A stretch of DNA of 64,000 nucleotides, from the NCBI GenBank assembly GCA_047947115.1, contig CP170459.1, positions 1,056,001 through 1,120,000 of the forward strand. Reading direction: 5' to 3'. Position 1 is the stretch's first letter. Every line of letters begins with the position of its first letter. The translations under genes were made by a program, and so were the position numbers. Source of the stretch: Verrucomicrobiota bacterium (GTDB lineage: Bacteria; Verrucomicrobiota; Verrucomicrobiia; Limisphaerales; AAA164-E04). Below, one piece after another: positions 3,071 to 10,000 of this stretch. The notes beneath the pieces are model-generated. The model did not search any database. It saw nothing but the letters and a program-made list of their open reading frames with translations, and was not told the origin of the DNA.

Positions 3071-3245
3071 GGAGGGACGAGTTCCACCTCGATCCCATAC
3101 TTCTTCCTCACCAATGCACCTGACCAATTGACGTGGAATGCGGGTAGTCATTGGTTTCCGTCTGTCTACAGCCTTTCCATTGCAGCCTGATCGCTATTCG
3201 GTCGATTCCAGGTTTGAAGTGGGTCAAGGCGGAGCTTGCCCCTCC
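3071..3245. repeat. MITE/REPIN-like element, copy 1
   Basis: Ends GGAGGGACGAGTTCC and GGAGCTTGCCCCTCC are inverted. The interior aligns with 49996-50181. Confidence 0.8.
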
Positions 3246-3326
3246 CGATAGGGTTTGCTATTTTGCAAATTTAATACTTTACAAGGCCTATAAACCATTT
3301 TATTTAACTTTTTAGTTAATTTATGG

Positions 3327-4628
3327 ATGCTTATGTCTTGTTTTTCAAAAGTTTTTTTGCAAATTGCACCGGAAGTTTCGGGTTCCGACCTGGCTGAGCT
3401 TCTAGGCAAATCGAAACCTTACATCGCACAGATCCGTACCGGAAAACGTATTCCTACCGATGAAGACGTCATTCTGTTGAGCCATCGCTTTGCTCCCAAC
3501 CGGCTTGAGGAATTGCTTCTAAGCGCTTATCTGGACCGTTTGACCGGCAAATCGTTCGATGATGCATCCTTGAAATCCAAGGGAGAGGCCACACTGAAAA
3601 AGCTGCTCACTCAGTTCCGTCCTGATAAGAAATTACCAGGCAAAAGAACACTGCGCGATTTTCCCGAACAATTCTCCCCCCTGGCGATCATCACCGGAGA
3701 CAAACGCGAAGTGCGGGGCCGACACATCGGCGCAGGAGATTTCGGCGTCCACATGACCACCACTGCAGACAGCAGATGGATCATGAGCCTCGGCCTGGAC
3801 AAAGATACGGTTCACTATATCGACAAGGATTTCGTCCTGTTGAGTGAGGAAGAACTTATCCATAGATTCTCGCATAGAAACCTCCTTGTCATCGGCAGCC
3901 CTGCAGTGAACCACCTCGCCAGACGCATAAACCGATCTTCGATTTTTCGATTTAATATCAACAGCGATGTGGATGAAGGTTTGGAGGAAATCATCCAACA
4001 GGCCAAGGAAAAATCGAAATCAAAAGATGAACTGGCCTTGTTTTATCAGGACTCGTCCGAAGACCTCACCAAACTGATGCGCTATCTGTTTGTCGGGGGA
4101 CTTTTTGACCCAACTTACCCTAAAGGCGACTACGTGACATCAACCTATCACAAAATGCCGGGCAACACGGACCTGGACTTCGGCGTTCTCTCATTCGCTT
4201 CCAATCCATTTTATGCCGCGAAATGTGCCGCCGAAGGTCGTCCCAACGATCATCAATTCGTGTCCATTTTTGCAGCAGGCATTCATCACCCGGCGACGGC
4301 TCACGCAATTCGCCAGCTGGGCAGTTATGGCAAAGAGAACGGGGTATTTGATCAGCACCCGTACGGAGGTGTCTTTCGTGTGGAACTGGATCTTGAACAG
4401 ACCTTTTTTTCGGACCGGGTGCGGGACGGGGTGTTCCAATGGGAAGACGACGCAGACGACCAACGCACGCCCATTGAAGACCAGGGGCAATGTTTGCTGT
4501 CCGAACTGGAATACATCGAAAACGAACGTCGATTGGAAAACCTCAACACTCTTCAACTCAAACCAGAGCACGCACTTGAAGCGCGACGGTTGGTGCAGTC
4601 CTTGATCAAAGCAGGAGGGACCCAATGA
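3327..4628 (+). CDS. XRE-type HTH protein with large uncharacterised C-terminal domain
   Basis: N-terminal SDLAELLGKSKPYIAQIRTGKRIP helix-turn-helix; C-domain motifs NLLVIGSPAVN and AGIHHPATA. Start could be 3333. Confidence 0.7.
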   Translation: MLMSCFSKVFLQIAPEVSGSDLAELLGKSKPYIAQIRTGKRIPTDEDVILLSHRFAPNRLEELLLSAYLDRLTGKSFDDASLKSKGEATLKKLLTQFRPDKKLPGKRTLRDFPEQFSPLAIITGDKREVRGRHIGAGDFGVHMTTTADSRWIMSLGLDKDTVHYIDKDFVLLSEEELIHRFSHRNLLVIGSPAVNHLARRINRSSIFRFNINSDVDEGLEEIIQQAKEKSKSKDELALFYQDSSEDLTKLMRYLFVGGLFDPTYPKGDYVTSTYHKMPGNTDLDFGVLSFASNPFYAAKCAAEGRPNDHQFVSIFAAGIHHPATAHAIRQLGSYGKENGVFDQHPYGGVFRVELDLEQTFFSDRVRDGVFQWEDDADDQRTPIEDQGQCLLSELEYIENERRLENLNTLQLKPEHALEARRLVQSLIKAGGTQ

Positions 4629-5656
4629 GAAAACGCCACATCAAGACATTTGCTTACCCCCGTGTGGGATTGGTTGGAAACCCGAGTGACGGATACTTTG
4701 GCCGAACCATTGCGTTCACTTTTAAAAATTTTAAAGCCGAGATCCTTTTGGGTGAGGACTCCACCCGCATCAGTTTCGTCAATCGTGAATCCGAGTTCGA
4801 TTCGGTGGAACACCTTTGCGACAATATCCAAATGCATGGCTATTACGGTGGCATTCGACTGCTCAAAGCGACCATCAAGCGGTTCCGGGATCATTGTTGC
4901 GATGAAGGATTGAAGGTGGATTTGGAGAAAAAGTTCAAGATCACCTACACCTCCAACATTCCCCAACAGGTAGGACTTGCCGGCTCCAGTGCCATCATCA
5001 CGGCCACCTTTCGGGCTCTGATGGAGTTTTATGAGGTGCAGATTGACAACACGATTCTGCCGAACTTAATCCGCGAGGTGGAAACACGTGAGTTGAAAAT
5101 TCCCGCCGGACTGCAGGATCGGGTCGTTCAAGTCTACAACGATCTGGTCTTCATGGATTTCAATCAGGAAAAAATGGACCGGGATGGATATGGTTTTTAT
5201 GAGCCCATTCAGGTCAAGACCATGCCCCGATTTTACATCGCTTACCGAGCTGATTTGTCGGAAGGCACGGAGGTTTCCCACAACAGGCTGCGTTACAAAT
5301 ACGATGAAGGCGACAAAGATGCTCACGACGCCATGAAGTTTTGGGCGGAGTTGACACTGACCGCGAAAAAGGCTTTGGAAGAAGACGATCAGGACACACT
5401 GTTCCAGTGTATCAATGCAAACTTCGACAAACGCAAAGAGCTCTACGAAAAACTCAAAGTCCACATGAAAGCGGAGCATCTTGAGATGGTTCAATGCGCC
5501 CGAGAAATGGGAGCCAGTGCCAAATTCGCAGGATCTGGCGGAGCCATTGTGGGCACCTATCGGAAGGAATCAGACTATCCGAAATTGAAAAAATACCTGG
5601 GCAGCAAAGGCATTCAGGTCATCAAACCCCGGTTCATCGAAGAAGAATTGTTATGA
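4625..5656 (+). CDS. GHMP kinase, glucuronokinase-like
   Basis: RVGLVGNPSDGYFGRTI, GYYGGIRLL, IPQQVGLAGSSA, AGLQDRVVQVY and KFAGSGGA match plant glucuronokinase motifs as recalled. Confidence 0.85.
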   Translation: MRKRHIKTFAYPRVGLVGNPSDGYFGRTIAFTFKNFKAEILLGEDSTRISFVNRESEFDSVEHLCDNIQMHGYYGGIRLLKATIKRFRDHCCDEGLKVDLEKKFKITYTSNIPQQVGLAGSSAIITATFRALMEFYEVQIDNTILPNLIREVETRELKIPAGLQDRVVQVYNDLVFMDFNQEKMDRDGYGFYEPIQVKTMPRFYIAYRADLSEGTEVSHNRLRYKYDEGDKDAHDAMKFWAELTLTAKKALEEDDQDTLFQCINANFDKRKELYEKLKVHMKAEHLEMVQCAREMGASAKFAGSGGAIVGTYRKESDYPKLKKYLGSKGIQVIKPRFIEEELL

Positions 5657-6534
5657 TCAAGAAAGCTGTCATTCCGGCCGCAGGATACGGTACGCGATTT
5701 TTACCCGCTTCCAAGTCGGTTCCCAAAGAAATGATCCCGGTGGTGGACAAGCCTACCATTCAATATGTCGTGGAGGAAGCCGTCGAAGCAGGTATCGAAG
5801 AAATCCTGATCGTTGTCAGCAATGGCAAAGACGCCATCAAACAGCACTTTTCCCCCAATGTTGAATTGGAAGCTCTCTTGGAAAAGAAGGGCAAAACGAA
5901 GGAATTGGAAGCCATGCAATCACTTTCCAAACTGGCAAAAATTCAATACGTCCACCAGTTGGAAATGAGGGGACTGGGCGATGCCGTGCGGTATGCGAAG
6001 GATTTTGCGGGCAAGGATCCGGTTGCTGTTTTGCTGGGTGACACCATTTTACGGTCTCACCGAGAGCAATCGGTCTTGAGATCAATGGTGGACATTTACG
6101 ACCAACATGGAGGATCGGTCATTGCCTTGAGAGAAATGCCAAGGTCCGTGATCAGCCGATATGGCGTCGTGGCATGTGAGCCAACAACGGAGGAAGGAGT
6201 GGTGCGCATCACTGGGTTGGTGGAAAAACCGGCTCCGGAAAAGGTCCCCAGCCTGCTGGCAGTCTCGGCTCGTTACATCATCACTCCCCGCATTTTCAAG
6301 TTCCTGGAGAATACTCAACCGGGATTTGGCGGAGAAATACAAATCACCGATGCTCTCAATGCCGTCGCTCAACTGGAACCCATGTCCGGATTTCAATACG
6401 ATGGCATCCGACTTGATATCGGAAATAAACTGGAGTTTATCAAAAGCAATCTGTTGCTCGGCCTCGAACGCCCCGACATGAAGGATGACCTCATGCAGTT
6501 TATCGTCGGATTAAATAAATCCGGCACTTGCTGA
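5653..6534 (+). CDS. galU: UTP--glucose-1-phosphate uridylyltransferase
   Basis: KAVIPAAGYGTRFLPASKSVPKEM, GLGDAV, VEKP, GGEIQITDA. ATGA overlap with the kinase sets the start at 5653. Confidence 0.9.
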   Translation: MIKKAVIPAAGYGTRFLPASKSVPKEMIPVVDKPTIQYVVEEAVEAGIEEILIVVSNGKDAIKQHFSPNVELEALLEKKGKTKELEAMQSLSKLAKIQYVHQLEMRGLGDAVRYAKDFAGKDPVAVLLGDTILRSHREQSVLRSMVDIYDQHGGSVIALREMPRSVISRYGVVACEPTTEEGVVRITGLVEKPAPEKVPSLLAVSARYIITPRIFKFLENTQPGFGGEIQITDALNAVAQLEPMSGFQYDGIRLDIGNKLEFIKSNLLLGLERPDMKDDLMQFIVGLNKSGTC

Positions 6535-6715
6535 TTTTGTGATAGTTAAAAATATCCATAGTCTATTTATTTGAAATATATACAAATTATAATATTTATA
6601 GAATATATTTTTATGCAAAAAATATCATAATCGTGCTCCAACCAATTGATTTCATTTACCTTCCACATAATGATCACAAGCACTTGAAACGCTGAAAATC
6701 TATCTTAAAATCGAA

Positions 6716-6744
6716 TTGACAACACGCACAAGACATTAAACAAT
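6716..6744 (+). promoter_or_regulatory. Candidate sigma70 promoter
   Basis: TTGACA-N17-AACAAT downstream of a very AT-rich tract and upstream of the small ORF. Confidence 0.4.
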
Positions 6745-6793
6745 GCCTTTATTCGTGCGTGTCACTTTCAGGAAAGTTCGAAGAATACATTTT

Positions 6794-7354: not shown

Positions 7355-8599
7355 TTAGTGAACCGGTGTCCATAGGATCTGTTCCAATAATTCTCTGGCT
7401 TTGACTAGGCACAACGGATCTCCGTCCCTTGCCAGTTTTTCGACTACTTTCAATTGAAGAGCCGTTGCCCGTACTTTACACCTCTGTAAATACGACAATG
7501 CAGAGAAGGCCACTTCCTGACTGCAGGATGATATCAATTCAAACAAGGTGTTTTGGATTTCTGAAGAGATTTCCTGATCGTAGGATAAAAACTGAACAGC
7601 CAACATCTGTATGCTTGGTGACGAATCCCCAGCCGCCATAAAAAAATAGGAAGAACCATCCTTCCAATTTTCATTGCCCTTTCTTGAACGCAACAAACCG
7701 AGATAAGCACTCTCACGAGTGATGTCATCCTCAACTTTCAGAAACTTAATGATCGTGGACTGGAATTGTTGAGTATTGATCACGGTCCCACGCATAAAGC
7801 GCAGAGCAATCTCAGAAAGATCGGGATGTTCCTTTTCAAACAACATGAAAAAAAAGGAATCAGAAAGTCCAAACATCAGAAATGAAAGTAATTCAGACTC
7901 CGGACTCACAGCTCCGGCAACCATGGGGGATGAGGAGGACAAAAGTGAATAGACAGGGATGGTCTTTAACGATTTGATCAGATCCAAATCCGATTCTATC
8001 AGCTTTTCCAGAAAAAAGCCGAACCGAGGCTCCTGCCAATGAAGGCCTGCCAAGACGAGAAAAGCTTGCCGGCGAATGCTCATACTGTTCCCATTATCCA
8101 GAATCGTCTGGGAAATGGATTCCCATGTCTGCTGATTGGAGATTTTCAGATGGAACAGAGATCGAAGAGCTGTATGCCGCATCCGTTGATCGGAATCGCC
8201 CAATTTCTCAAGCACCAGCGGAAAAGCTTTCTCCCCATGACCCGCCAATGAAGAACATGCAGCCAATCGAATCTGATCCGCCGGAGGAGAGGGAGCCCAG
8301 TGGGGAACCCTGGACTGAATTCCAACCGGCAATTTTGCCCAAATGCCCCGCCAGGTACTTATCAATATCGCATCACGTTGGTTGATCCGAACCGCAAGCT
8401 CCTCAAATGTGGGTTTTTCCTTGTTTCGGGGAATACTCAACCTCTTAAGATACCCATCCCCCAAGAACAGCAAAGAAACAAGCACAACCACCAAGTAAAT
8501 CCACTTGCGCTTGATCAATCCTTTTTGCCACGCAGGCATATGGTGATTTTGTGGGACCATGTGTTCACTTCTTTTATTGCATGATGTTCTCGAAATCAA
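7355..8599 (-). CDS. HEAT-repeat protein with N-terminal TM anchor
   Basis: TM segment, then HEAT-like units (LGDSDQRMRHTALRSL, GDSSPSIQMLAVQFL). Start uncertain. Confidence 0.65.
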   Translation of the reverse strand: MISRTSCNKRSEHMVPQNHHMPAWQKGLIKRKWIYLVVVLVSLLFLGDGYLKRLSIPRNKEKPTFEELAVRINQRDAILISTWRGIWAKLPVGIQSRVPHWAPSPPADQIRLAACSSLAGHGEKAFPLVLEKLGDSDQRMRHTALRSLFHLKISNQQTWESISQTILDNGNSMSIRRQAFLVLAGLHWQEPRFGFFLEKLIESDLDLIKSLKTIPVYSLLSSSSPMVAGAVSPESELLSFLMFGLSDSFFFMLFEKEHPDLSEIALRFMRGTVINTQQFQSTIIKFLKVEDDITRESAYLGLLRSRKGNENWKDGSSYFFMAAGDSSPSIQMLAVQFLSYDQEISSEIQNTLFELISSCSQEVAFSALSYLQRCKVRATALQLKVVEKLARDGDPLCLVKARELLEQILWTPVH

Positions 8600-8672
8600 T
8601 CAGTTAGAACACGGGACACTATGTCGTGTTCAAATTTCCTGACTCGACACGAGGCGTGCTTCGTGGCAACTA

Positions 8673-9503
8673 GTGGGGATGGACAAGCGACAAAGGCTGG
8701 AATCGATATTAAAGGATCTGGGATCCTGCCTGGTGGCTTATTCAGGCGGGGTGGATTCGGCGTTACTGGCACTGGTTGCCTGTCGGACCTTGGGTGATCG
8801 TGCAGTTGCGGTCATGGCGGATTCCCCCAGCCTTCCGAGAAGCGAGCTGAAAGAAGCGATTGAGTTGTCCGAACAGTTCGATTTCCCACTGGAAATCATC
8901 CGGACAAAGGAATTTGAAAACGAAGATTACCTCACCAATCCCACCAACCGTTGTTATTTCTGCAAACATGCCTTGTTTGAAGAAATGGAAATCTATGCCA
9001 AAGAACGTGGAGTTGCGGCCATCATTTACGGTGAAAATGCCGATGACATTGGAGATTTTCGCCCCGGCGCCAAAGCAGCTCAAGAATTTCAGGTTCGAGC
9101 CCCACTCAAAGAAGCAGGCTTGACCAAATCCGAAATCAGGGCTTTTTCGGAAGAATTGGGTCTCCCCACCGCTTCCAAACCGCAAATGGCCTGCCTGAGT
9201 TCCCGGATTCCCTACGGTGAAAAAGTCTCGGTGAAAAAATTAAGTCAGATCGAACAGGCAGAAGCCATTCTGCGTCGACATGGATTTTTTGACCTCCGCG
9301 TCCGTCACCACGAACTCTCCACAGGCTCATTGGCGCGTATCGAAGTCGGCAAGGAAGAAGTGGAACGCCTGATGGATGCCACACTGCGGGAAACACTCAC
9401 CCAATCCATCAAAGAACTGGGTTACCTATTCGTCACGCTGGACCTGACCGGATATCAAAGAGGCAGTCTGAATGTGATCAAGGAGACAAGCGAAAAACTG
9501 TAG
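8673..9503 (+). CDS. larE: ATP-dependent sulfur transferase, LarE family
   Basis: PP-loop SGGVDS, RCYFCK, DFRPG, ACLSSRIPYG. Confidence 0.88.
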   Translation: MGMDKRQRLESILKDLGSCLVAYSGGVDSALLALVACRTLGDRAVAVMADSPSLPRSELKEAIELSEQFDFPLEIIRTKEFENEDYLTNPTNRCYFCKHALFEEMEIYAKERGVAAIIYGENADDIGDFRPGAKAAQEFQVRAPLKEAGLTKSEIRAFSEELGLPTASKPQMACLSSRIPYGEKVSVKKLSQIEQAEAILRRHGFFDLRVRHHELSTGSLARIEVGKEEVERLMDATLRETLTQSIKELGYLFVTLDLTGYQRGSLNVIKETSEKL

Positions 9504-9514
9504 CAGCAAAAAGC

Positions 9515-10000
9515 ATGGAACTTGACTCAAAAATCATTCCCTTCGACCAACTGACCGAATGGCGAGCGGGCATTCGATCCAGTGGAAAACGCCTGGTGGT
9601 CACCAACGGATGCTTTGATATTTTACACGTCGGACATGTTCGCTATCTCAGTAGTGCGCGTGCCGCCGGAGATCTTTTAATGGTGGGACTCAACGGAGAC
9701 CAAAGCGTGAGGGAACTGAAAGGACCGGAACGACCACTGAACATTGAATCCGATCGAGCCCTGTTGCTGGCAGCGCTGCAGTGTGTCGACGCCGTGTGCA
9801 TCTTTCCCGAAAAGCGGGCAACCCGCTTCCTGAAAACATCCCAACCGGATATCTACATCAAGGGAGGGGATTACACATTGGATACGCTGGATCAGGACGA
9901 ACGTCAGGCAGTCGAAGGGGCGGGCGGGCAGATCCAGTTCATCCCGTTTGTAGCCGGCCGATCCACCACCAACCTGATCCGAAAGATGTCGCTTCAATAA
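9515..10000 (+). CDS. rfaE2: RfaE domain II-like adenylyl/cytidylyltransferase
   Basis: TNGCFDILHVGHVRYL, LKGPERP, KGGDY, GRSTT. Confidence 0.85.
   Translation: MELDSKIIPFDQLTEWRAGIRSSGKRLVVTNGCFDILHVGHVRYLSSARAAGDLLMVGLNGDQSVRELKGPERPLNIESDRALLLAALQCVDAVCIFPEKRATRFLKTSQPDIYIKGGDYTLDTLDQDERQAVEGAGGQIQFIPFVAGRSTTNLIRKMSLQ

Follow-up and report, generated by a model that had tools for sequence, protein, structure and literature searches.

What does a kinase of the plant glucuronokinase type do in a bacterial operon, placed between a putative transcriptional regulator and a uridylyltransferase? The operon lies in a 64,000-nucleotide stretch of contig CP170459.1 (the window, whose first letter is position 1), from an aquatic Verrucomicrobiota bacterium with a genome in a single 6.08-Mb contig and a completeness of 95.8%. 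G labels denote genomes and L labels loci in the comparison sets; G000 is the genome that holds the window, and the closest named relatives are Verrucomicrobiota metagenome-assembled genomes (MAGs). Three genes on the + strand make up the operon: an XRE-type helix-turn-helix (HTH) protein of 433 amino acids (gene 1, 3327-4628; an ATG at 3333 may be the true start), a GHMP kinase of the glucuronokinase family with 343 amino acids (gene 2, 4625-5656), and a GalU-family uridylyltransferase of a kinase-associated subgroup, 293 amino acids from the ATG at 5653 (gene 3, 5653-6534). The first-pass annotation had described ATGA-coupled genes between AT-rich tracts and behind a palindrome. The overlaps at 4625-4628 and 5653-5656 were confirmed, the GC content is 25.9% at 3250-3330 and 28.5% at 6535-6780 compared to 51% for the genome, and the palindrome TTAACT-TTTT-AGTTAA was found at 3304-3319.

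With a probability of roughly 0.6, comparative sequence evidence suggests that the kinase and GalU make uridine diphosphate (UDP)-glucuronate from free glucuronate, and that the HTH protein controls the operon through palindromic boxes. The kinase would convert free D-glucuronate to glucuronate-1-phosphate, and the GalU-type enzyme would convert this intermediate to UDP-glucuronate. In the clade that carries all three genes (the trio clade), the glucuronate would come from a myo-inositol oxygenase (MIOX) encoded elsewhere or from the degradation of polysaccharides. There, the route would take the place of UDP-glucose dehydrogenase (Ugd), the enzyme to which bacterial UDP-glucuronate is normally ascribed. 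The HTH protein would repress the shared promoter of its own three-gene transcript from boxes about five helical turns apart.

Assignment of gene 2 to the plant-type glucuronokinases was supported by several comparisons. The protein matches PF00288 (GHMP_kinases_N) with 45.9 bits, and its best score against the curated NCBIfam GHMP models is 50.5 bits, with no equivalog that fits. Matches to other GHMP families are far lower, the best one in the PDB reaching 36.9 bits. Among the 120 matches listed, the kinase domains of animal GKUP proteins (glucuronokinase fused to a putative uridyl pyrophosphorylase) are 39-45% identical over 88-97% of the length, including the Xenopus tropicalis protein with 40% identity over 94%. 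When 14 eukaryotic and 58 bacterial sequences were compared, 64 positions were at least 90% identical in both sets, among them G18-N19-P20-S21-D22-G23 of the GNPSD motif, and 11 of 14 residues of a lily glucuronokinase peptide given in the available part of PMC2823444 are identical in the window kinase. The GKUP cluster superimposes with a template-modelling (TM) score of 0.88, with predicted models on both sides. A quick tree of 77 rows placed the eukaryotic members as one group (support 91) within the bacterial ones; it contains no plant sequence, and the placement of its root and of the long, distant rows is uncertain. The kinase is present as a single copy in G000. Bacterial members of the family, described at first as known mainly from eukaryotes, are numerous: at least 7998 matches were found, all scored candidates passed, many carry the label glucuronokinase from JGI, and homologs in "a few bacteria" were already mentioned in the 2009 cloning paper (PMC2823444). 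According to the available sections of that paper, glucuronate was the sole sugar accepted by the Arabidopsis enzyme among those tested; for the zebrafish enzyme, strict specificity for glucuronate is described in the corresponding sections of PMC3938481, which also report kinase activity for the Xenopus enzyme. We consider it likely that glucuronate is also the substrate of the window kinase.

The GalU-family gene has a distribution that follows the kinase. We analyzed a sample of 151 genomes of the order (GalU at E<=1e-30) and a sample of 251 genomes of the phylum (GalU at E<1e-50). In the order, the kinase is present in 13 genomes and GalU in the same 13, with the two genes adjacent in 11. 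In the phylum, 55 genomes have the kinase and 52 have GalU; both are found in 51, the kinase only in 4, GalU only in 1 and neither in 195, a count that excludes seven genomes with weak GalU matches to proteins of about 650 residues. Adjacency was observed for 22 of the 29 phylum loci fetched, for 7 of 20 loci in the phylum of G407, where 20 of 151 genomes carry the kinase, and on a Rufibacter plasmid. These data bear out the idea that GalU is the partner of the kinase, and it very probably acts on the kinase's product. The direct neighbour of the kinase is a Ugd gene instead of GalU in one genus (G363:C21:37591-39786, G369:C48:9740-11932 and G393:C8:5166-7555).

Gene 3 encodes an NTP_transferase domain (PF00483) and falls marginally under the cut-off of the TIGR01099 galU model (320.9 versus 326.8 bits). 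Its catalytic residues are intact (G11, R15, K25, E26, Q102, G107, D130, G171, E191, K192, E228 and D255), and the strictly conserved residues named in the available text of PMC11796359 are present in all 46 kinase-associated GalUs. The sugar pocket of the window enzyme differs at T131 and S205-A206. The position of the Asp that binds glucose in the Pseudomonas UDP-glucose pyrophosphorylase (UGP; PMC11796359, available text) is Thr or Ser in 45 of 46 kinase-associated copies and Asp in 7 of 10 canonical ones. The residues ahead of the RY motif are reduced to Ala or Ser in the kinase-associated proteins: position 215 is Ala or Ser in 46/46, and G216, a Gly in 10/10 canonical sequences, is Ala or Ser in 36/46. 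Loss of the acidic pocket residue would fit an anionic substrate.

Gene 3 had at first been called a GalU paralog. G000 has no other GalU-type gene, which might suggest a housekeeping role, a prospect that the first-pass annotation had raised against its own proposal; it is indeed the sole copy, but the co-occurrence with the kinase argues against housekeeping. G000 also encodes, at G000:C1:1488278-1489822, a separate UGP of the Leishmania (eukaryote) type, with 416.8 bits to the trypanosomatid enzymes, and this protein is the likelier glucose-1-phosphate enzyme of the genome. Full-length eukaryote-type UGPs were found in 36 of the 151 order genomes, including 6 of the 13 with the kinase. Many order genomes contain an open reading frame (ORF) of about 1100-1450 codons with a weak partial match to PF01704 (for example G023:C55:3856-4212); most genomes of the order lack both GalU and a full-length eukaryote-type UGP, and the large protein could therefore be the UDP-glucose enzyme of these genomes. 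In 11 phylum genomes, ORFs of about 650 residues contain a GalU-like part (32-40% identity) and probably represent fusions (for example G298:C64:11186-12010 and G226:C3:92613-93443).

We then considered which enzymes of UDP-glucuronate metabolism accompany the operon. The only nucleoside diphosphate (NDP)-sugar dehydrogenase of G000, encoded at G000:C1:1344578-1345894, has a GGHC motif and scores 258 bits against WecC, 226 against TviB and 125 against TuaD, and TIGR03026, searched at E<=1e-15, detects no NDP-sugar dehydrogenase in the other six trio genomes. A TuaD-type match at E<=1e-60 is present in 141 of the 151 order genomes. A recognisable Ugd is missing from 4 of 13 kinase-positive order genomes compared to at most 5 of 138 kinase-negative ones, and, in the phylum, from 18 of 55 kinase-positive genomes compared to at most 14 of 196 without the kinase; the kinase-negative values are upper bounds, as only kinase-positive genomes were re-examined, and the phylum values were counted manually from the listed positives. 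The initial phylum figure had been 27 of 55; on re-examination two of these genomes had an E. coli-type Ugd beside the kinase, five had short partial matches of another type and two were unclear. One order genome, G053, has a fragmented TuaD-type gene. MIOX is encoded in G000 at G000:C1:4319601-4320524 (380.7 bits), and MIOX, kinase and uridylyltransferase occur together in each of the seven trio genomes. A bacterial MIOX functions in yeast (PMC12076931, available sections). G000 has no match to inositol-1-phosphate synthase, suggesting that inositol would be taken up. It does have a UDP-glucuronate decarboxylase (Uxs, 433 bits to human UXS1), an epimerase-like gene and a uronate isomerase. 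Since all seven trio genomes have MIOX and none has a recognisable Ugd, the operon likely supplies UDP-glucuronate by a plant-type route.

A number of observations weigh against this interpretation. A TuaD-type Ugd is kept in 8 of 13 kinase-positive genomes of the order and in 28 of 55 of the phylum, and a general replacement of Ugd, for which the initial 27 of 55 had seemed to speak, was therefore rejected. A general link between MIOX and the kinase was likewise rejected outside the trio clade: the two occur together in just 2 of the 13 kinase-positive order genomes and in 1 of the 55 of the phylum, and MIOX is present in 49 of the 151 order genomes, mostly without the kinase. The WecC/TviB-like dehydrogenase gene of G000 has the epimerase-like gene on one side and Uxs on the other, and such a dehydrogenase adjoins the kinase-GalU pair in G006 and G382; from these positions, it could itself make UDP-glucuronate. 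In the five other trio genomes searched, no Uxs orthologue (best identity 35-41%) and no epimerase (0/5) was found, and thus a consumer of UDP-glucuronate is missing from the evidence there. Within GalU, the loss of the pocket Asp is not diagnostic because the position is Val in E. coli and Thr in a Halolamina GalU that adjoins a Ugd gene, and because the canonical comparison set consists of only 10 sequences. The window protein has F225 where 37 of 46 kinase-associated copies share a Lys. In a quick tree from which 14 near-duplicate rows were excluded, the kinase-associated copies did not form one clade, but a clade of 32 that includes the window (support 95), a clade of 7 (support 100) and one separate row. 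No full-length eukaryote-type UGP was found in seven of the 13 order genomes with the kinase. Finally, related genomes are not independent and most of them are incomplete MAGs, with completeness known for only G000 and G033 among the seven trio genomes. In the 250 other genomes of the phylum sample, no MIOX was found.

Does the regulator belong to this pathway? Among 40 GTDB loci with a gene 1 homolog, kinase and GalU follow the HTH gene in L001-L007, and L009 ends inside the HTH gene; neither enzyme gene was found at the other 32 loci, which are at most 49% identical. Of 76 metagenome loci, nine with 37-residue matches (L319-L327) were excluded; among the remaining 67, the kinase follows the HTH gene in 11 (at least 68% identity), one close locus is cut off, and a kinase of the glucuronokinase family was found beside none of the other 55. 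The tight coupling is thus retained in 7/7 close GTDB loci with downstream DNA and 11/11 close metagenome loci, even as the flanking genes change. The trio is thus conserved only among close relatives; the wider unit is the kinase-GalU pair. Since the kinase accompanies the HTH gene only at 68% identity or more and at none of the 87 distant loci, the HTH gene appears to have joined the pair in one clade.

Two operator-like boxes precede gene 1. Box 2 is the palindrome TTAACT-N4-AGTTAA at 3304-3319, and its arms covary among relatives, reading TTTACA-N4-TGTAAA in L007 and L009. Box 1, which the first reading had missed, is TTTGCT-ATTT-TGCAAA at 3254-3269 and aligns in 8/8 upstream regions. Between them, TTTACA at 3278-3283 (+ strand) may be a -35-like element or a half-site; TTTAC is present in 6 of 8 alignment rows, and no promoter was called there. 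With the consensus TTWRCW-N4-WGYWAA, G000 contains a single pair of boxes at a distance of 49-52 bp when one mismatch per box is allowed, and no pair at four other distances used as a control. A pair spaced by 48-51 bp is found in the window and in 17/17 close loci that have upstream DNA (18/18 close regions), and it persists despite differences between these loci in the surrounding DNA and in the flanking genes; 10 of the 18 regions were found after the motif had been defined, and some loci are near-copies. By comparison, the pair was found in 0 of 10 regions upstream of HTH genes of 44-49% identity, one of which has a single perfect box. The recognition helix KS[KR]PY[IV]AQ is restricted to the close clade among 47 aligned HTH rows and differs in the mid-distance homologs. 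The palindrome proposed as an operator thus behaves as a conserved operator-like element with a distribution that follows the HTH clade, and binding of the HTH protein to both boxes is fairly likely. Autoregulation through a tandem operator would be the simplest explanation.

A wider regulon was also considered. The exact box 2 palindrome occurs three times in the G000 genome with a spacer of 4 and not at all with any other spacer from 0 to 8, and the two additional copies, at 424972 and 5512639, suggested further targets. The motif TTWACW-N4-WGTWAA occurs eight times in five trio genomes, four of them at the operon, and spacers of 5 and 3 give 6 and 8 occurrences. Because the palindrome counts resemble those for other spacers, a wide regulon, for which the relatives tested show no conservation, was rejected and control looks local. 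The copy at 424972 precedes a PEP-CTERM-like gene and overlaps a stop codon, and the copy at 5512639 precedes a cluster of four genes whose small products are predicted to be secreted or membrane-bound and resemble one another at the C-terminus (L042 and L043).

The regulator itself has 57 homologs. Its HTH part matches Pfam HTH_3 at residues 20-55 (26.4 bits, cut-off 23) and, by fold, HigA and the C-proteins (Z about 8). Predicted structures had mean confidence values (pLDDT) of 92.8 and 91.2, with 91.2 for the C-terminal domain. This C-domain (residues 103-428 approximately, nt 3633-4610; 326 residues) belongs to no Pfam or NCBIfam family. Its fold resembles the flavodoxin-like domain of BcsB (Z 8.7, root-mean-square deviation (rmsd) 3.4, 169 residues aligned), an archaeal S-layer domain (Z 7.5, 3.1, 120) and the non-catalytic N-domains of GH115 (Z 6.5, 3.6, 127), GH67 and GH84 enzymes, with Z between 8.7 and 5.2 and identities of 9-16% for the named matches; such likeness of a predicted model indicates a shared fold and carries no functional proof. 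Foldseek returned no match at E<=0.001 for either model, and the nearest Atlas clusters were unnamed (0.89-0.90), with an S-layer cluster at 0.87. The resemblance to glucuronidase N-domains was discarded as a sign of glucuronate binding because the same fold is found in GH84 and GH20 enzymes, and sub-threshold "RxLR effector" Pfam rows for C-domain relatives were taken as chance. We know of no regulator with a BcsB/GH67-N-like C-domain.

In homologs from several unrelated bacteria the C-domain is fused to other modules, following a caspase domain (L015:5086-6876 and L021:5239-6903) or preceding a nucleoside 2-deoxyribosyltransferase domain (L025:5974-7815, L035:5950-7791 and L039:5998-7788), and it is possibly an undescribed sensor or oligomerisation domain. 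Fusions to caspase or deoxyribosyltransferase domains are typical of such modules. On the predicted model, the C-domain of gene 1 is probably a dimerisation or ligand-input module. The idea that it senses a sugar phosphate or nucleotide found no support: the fold search gave the BcsB, S-layer and glycoside hydrolase resemblances and nothing pointing to such ligands, and 94 neighbours of distant HTH homologs had no recurring sugar-nucleotide theme, L020 apart. We regard a pathway metabolite as an unlikely ligand. At L020:7769-9480, in a Phycisphaerales MAG, a distant HTH homolog precedes a nucleotidyltransferase and a divergent GHMP-like kinase, possibly an independent link of the regulator family to a sugar-1-phosphate pair.

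These findings leave the regulator open to a different explanation, to which we give somewhat less than even odds and which is compatible with the enzyme model. The HTH gene could be an unrelated regulator behind which the pair landed once, its boxes serving autoregulation or another factor and its C-domain reading a stress or conflict signal. The 87 distant loci without the kinase, some of which have little flanking DNA, would agree with this explanation, as would their unremarkable neighbours, the caspase and deoxyribosyltransferase fusions and the absence of a kinase match from four of five genomes that carry a distant homolog of the HTH gene. Arguing for a functional connection are the trio's persistence at all close loci despite changing flanks, and the order of genes at L020.

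A second alternative retains the pathway but changes its substrate: the pair might activate different or broader acidic sugars, such as galacturonate, 4-O-methyl-glucuronate or mannuronate, to UDP-sugars. The window kinase is only about 40-44% identical to the tested glucuronokinases, a long branch (0.6) leads to the trio kinases within the bacterial members, and the five other trio genomes searched offer no UDP-glucuronate consumer. On the other hand, neither galacturonate nor any neutral sugar tested is a substrate of the plant and fish enzymes (available sections of the papers above), 64 positions are common to eukaryotic and bacterial members, and absence of Ugd is enriched with the kinase, leading us to consider broader acidic sugars rather unlikely. 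The most far-reaching version of the UDP-glucuronate proposal, in which the trio clade has lost Ugd and relies on a complete plant-type route as its sole source of UDP-glucuronate, with a dedicated GalU and an XRE repressor of a new type whose C-domain senses a uronate metabolite, is clearly unlikely as a whole. It is improbable that GalU is an ordinary or dual-specific UGP travelling with the kinase, with glucuronate-1-phosphate a side substrate or used by another enzyme, since the retained catalytic and glucose-binding residues named for the Klebsiella UGP (available text), a TIGR01099 score less than 6 bits off the cut-off, its status as sole GalU-type gene and the 7 of 13 kinase-positive order genomes without a full-length eukaryote-type UGP are set against a gene absent from 138/151 order and 199/251 phylum genomes and found without the kinase in only one, a Leishmania-type UGP in G000, and two plant UGPases that use glucuronate-1-phosphate at less than 10% (PMC12203929, available sections).

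The setting of the operon was also examined. The third-position GC content (GC3) of its genes is 0.55-0.59; as the genome median is 0.57, a recent foreign origin is not indicated. Promoter and terminator scans of the locus gave nothing above chance, and no terminator-like element was called in the AT-rich tract 3' of the operon (6535-6780). Parts of the stretch were found in 20 metatranscriptome runs from 16 studies, and contigs from four runs cover all three genes; they were not counted as evidence, as the runs were chosen by this stretch, DNA carry-over is possible and a contig is not equivalent to a single transcript. Immediately 5' of the operator, at 3071-3245, lies a dispersed repeat of about 180 bp with dozens of genome copies at 68-83% identity. 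Some copies are arrayed in tandem and recur about every 187 bp (for example G000:C1:3837348-3839579), and RNA-library contigs contain the repeat duplicated and with other flanks. On the 3' side (7355-10000) are genes for a HEAT-repeat protein (7355-8599, - strand), a PP-loop protein (8673-9503) and a cytidylyltransferase-like protein (9515-10000), an order common only to the nearest relative, L004.

The proposed pathway resembles known systems in part. It shares with the plant salvage route of MIOX, glucuronokinase (At3g01640) and UDP-sugar pyrophosphorylase (PMC2823444, available sections) the kinase family and predicted product, as well as MIOX in all seven trio genomes. In contrast to the plant route, where the enzyme for the second step has broad specificity, that step is assigned here to a 293-residue bacterial GalU-family protein, the genes form an operon with a regulator, and G000 lacks a match to inositol-1-phosphate synthase. 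Zebrafish and Xenopus GKUP likewise combine the kinase with a PF00483 nucleotidyltransferase, for which pyrophosphorylase activity is not demonstrated in the available sections of PMC3938481. Unlike GKUP, the bacterial system consists of two genes without fusion, and the window GalU has at most a distant relationship to the GKUP N-domain (best blastp E value 2e-4 among 14 proteins). Relative to bacterial GalU (TIGR01099; 262.7 bits to B. subtilis YngB), the fold and all catalytic residues are the same, whereas the pocket is substituted, the score is just below the equivalog cut-off and the distribution is tied to the kinase instead of universal. Gene 1 resembles XRE/Cro-C1 repressors in its N-terminal HTH_3 domain, its HigA/C-protein fold matches and the palindrome pair before its own gene, and differs in its C-domain, which has no family and is BcsB/S-layer/GH67/GH115-N-like. 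A different bacterial salvage route is reported to lead to UDP-xylose (PMC11267548, abstract).

The plant and fish types of pathway and the existence of bacterial kinase homologs were already known. The co-occurrence counts, the state of the trio clade with MIOX present and Ugd not found, and the two-box operator are new here. In a literature search that covered few subscription papers, we found no test of a bacterial glucuronokinase or of a GalU dedicated to glucuronate-1-phosphate. If correct, the proposal would add a second bacterial route to UDP-glucuronate, a two-gene bypass that is mis-annotated as plain GalU and whose gene pair occurs in roughly one in five Verrucomicrobiota genomes sampled (51/251) and in other phyla. 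GalU, a small bacterial protein, would be a candidate for an enzyme dedicated to the uridylylation of glucuronate-1-phosphate, a reaction that could not be demonstrated for the fish fusion enzyme. With MIOX present and no Ugd found, the trio clade is best suited to a test of the proposal, and its regulator adds an uncharacterised domain together with a defined operator-like element, which would allow a ligand screen.

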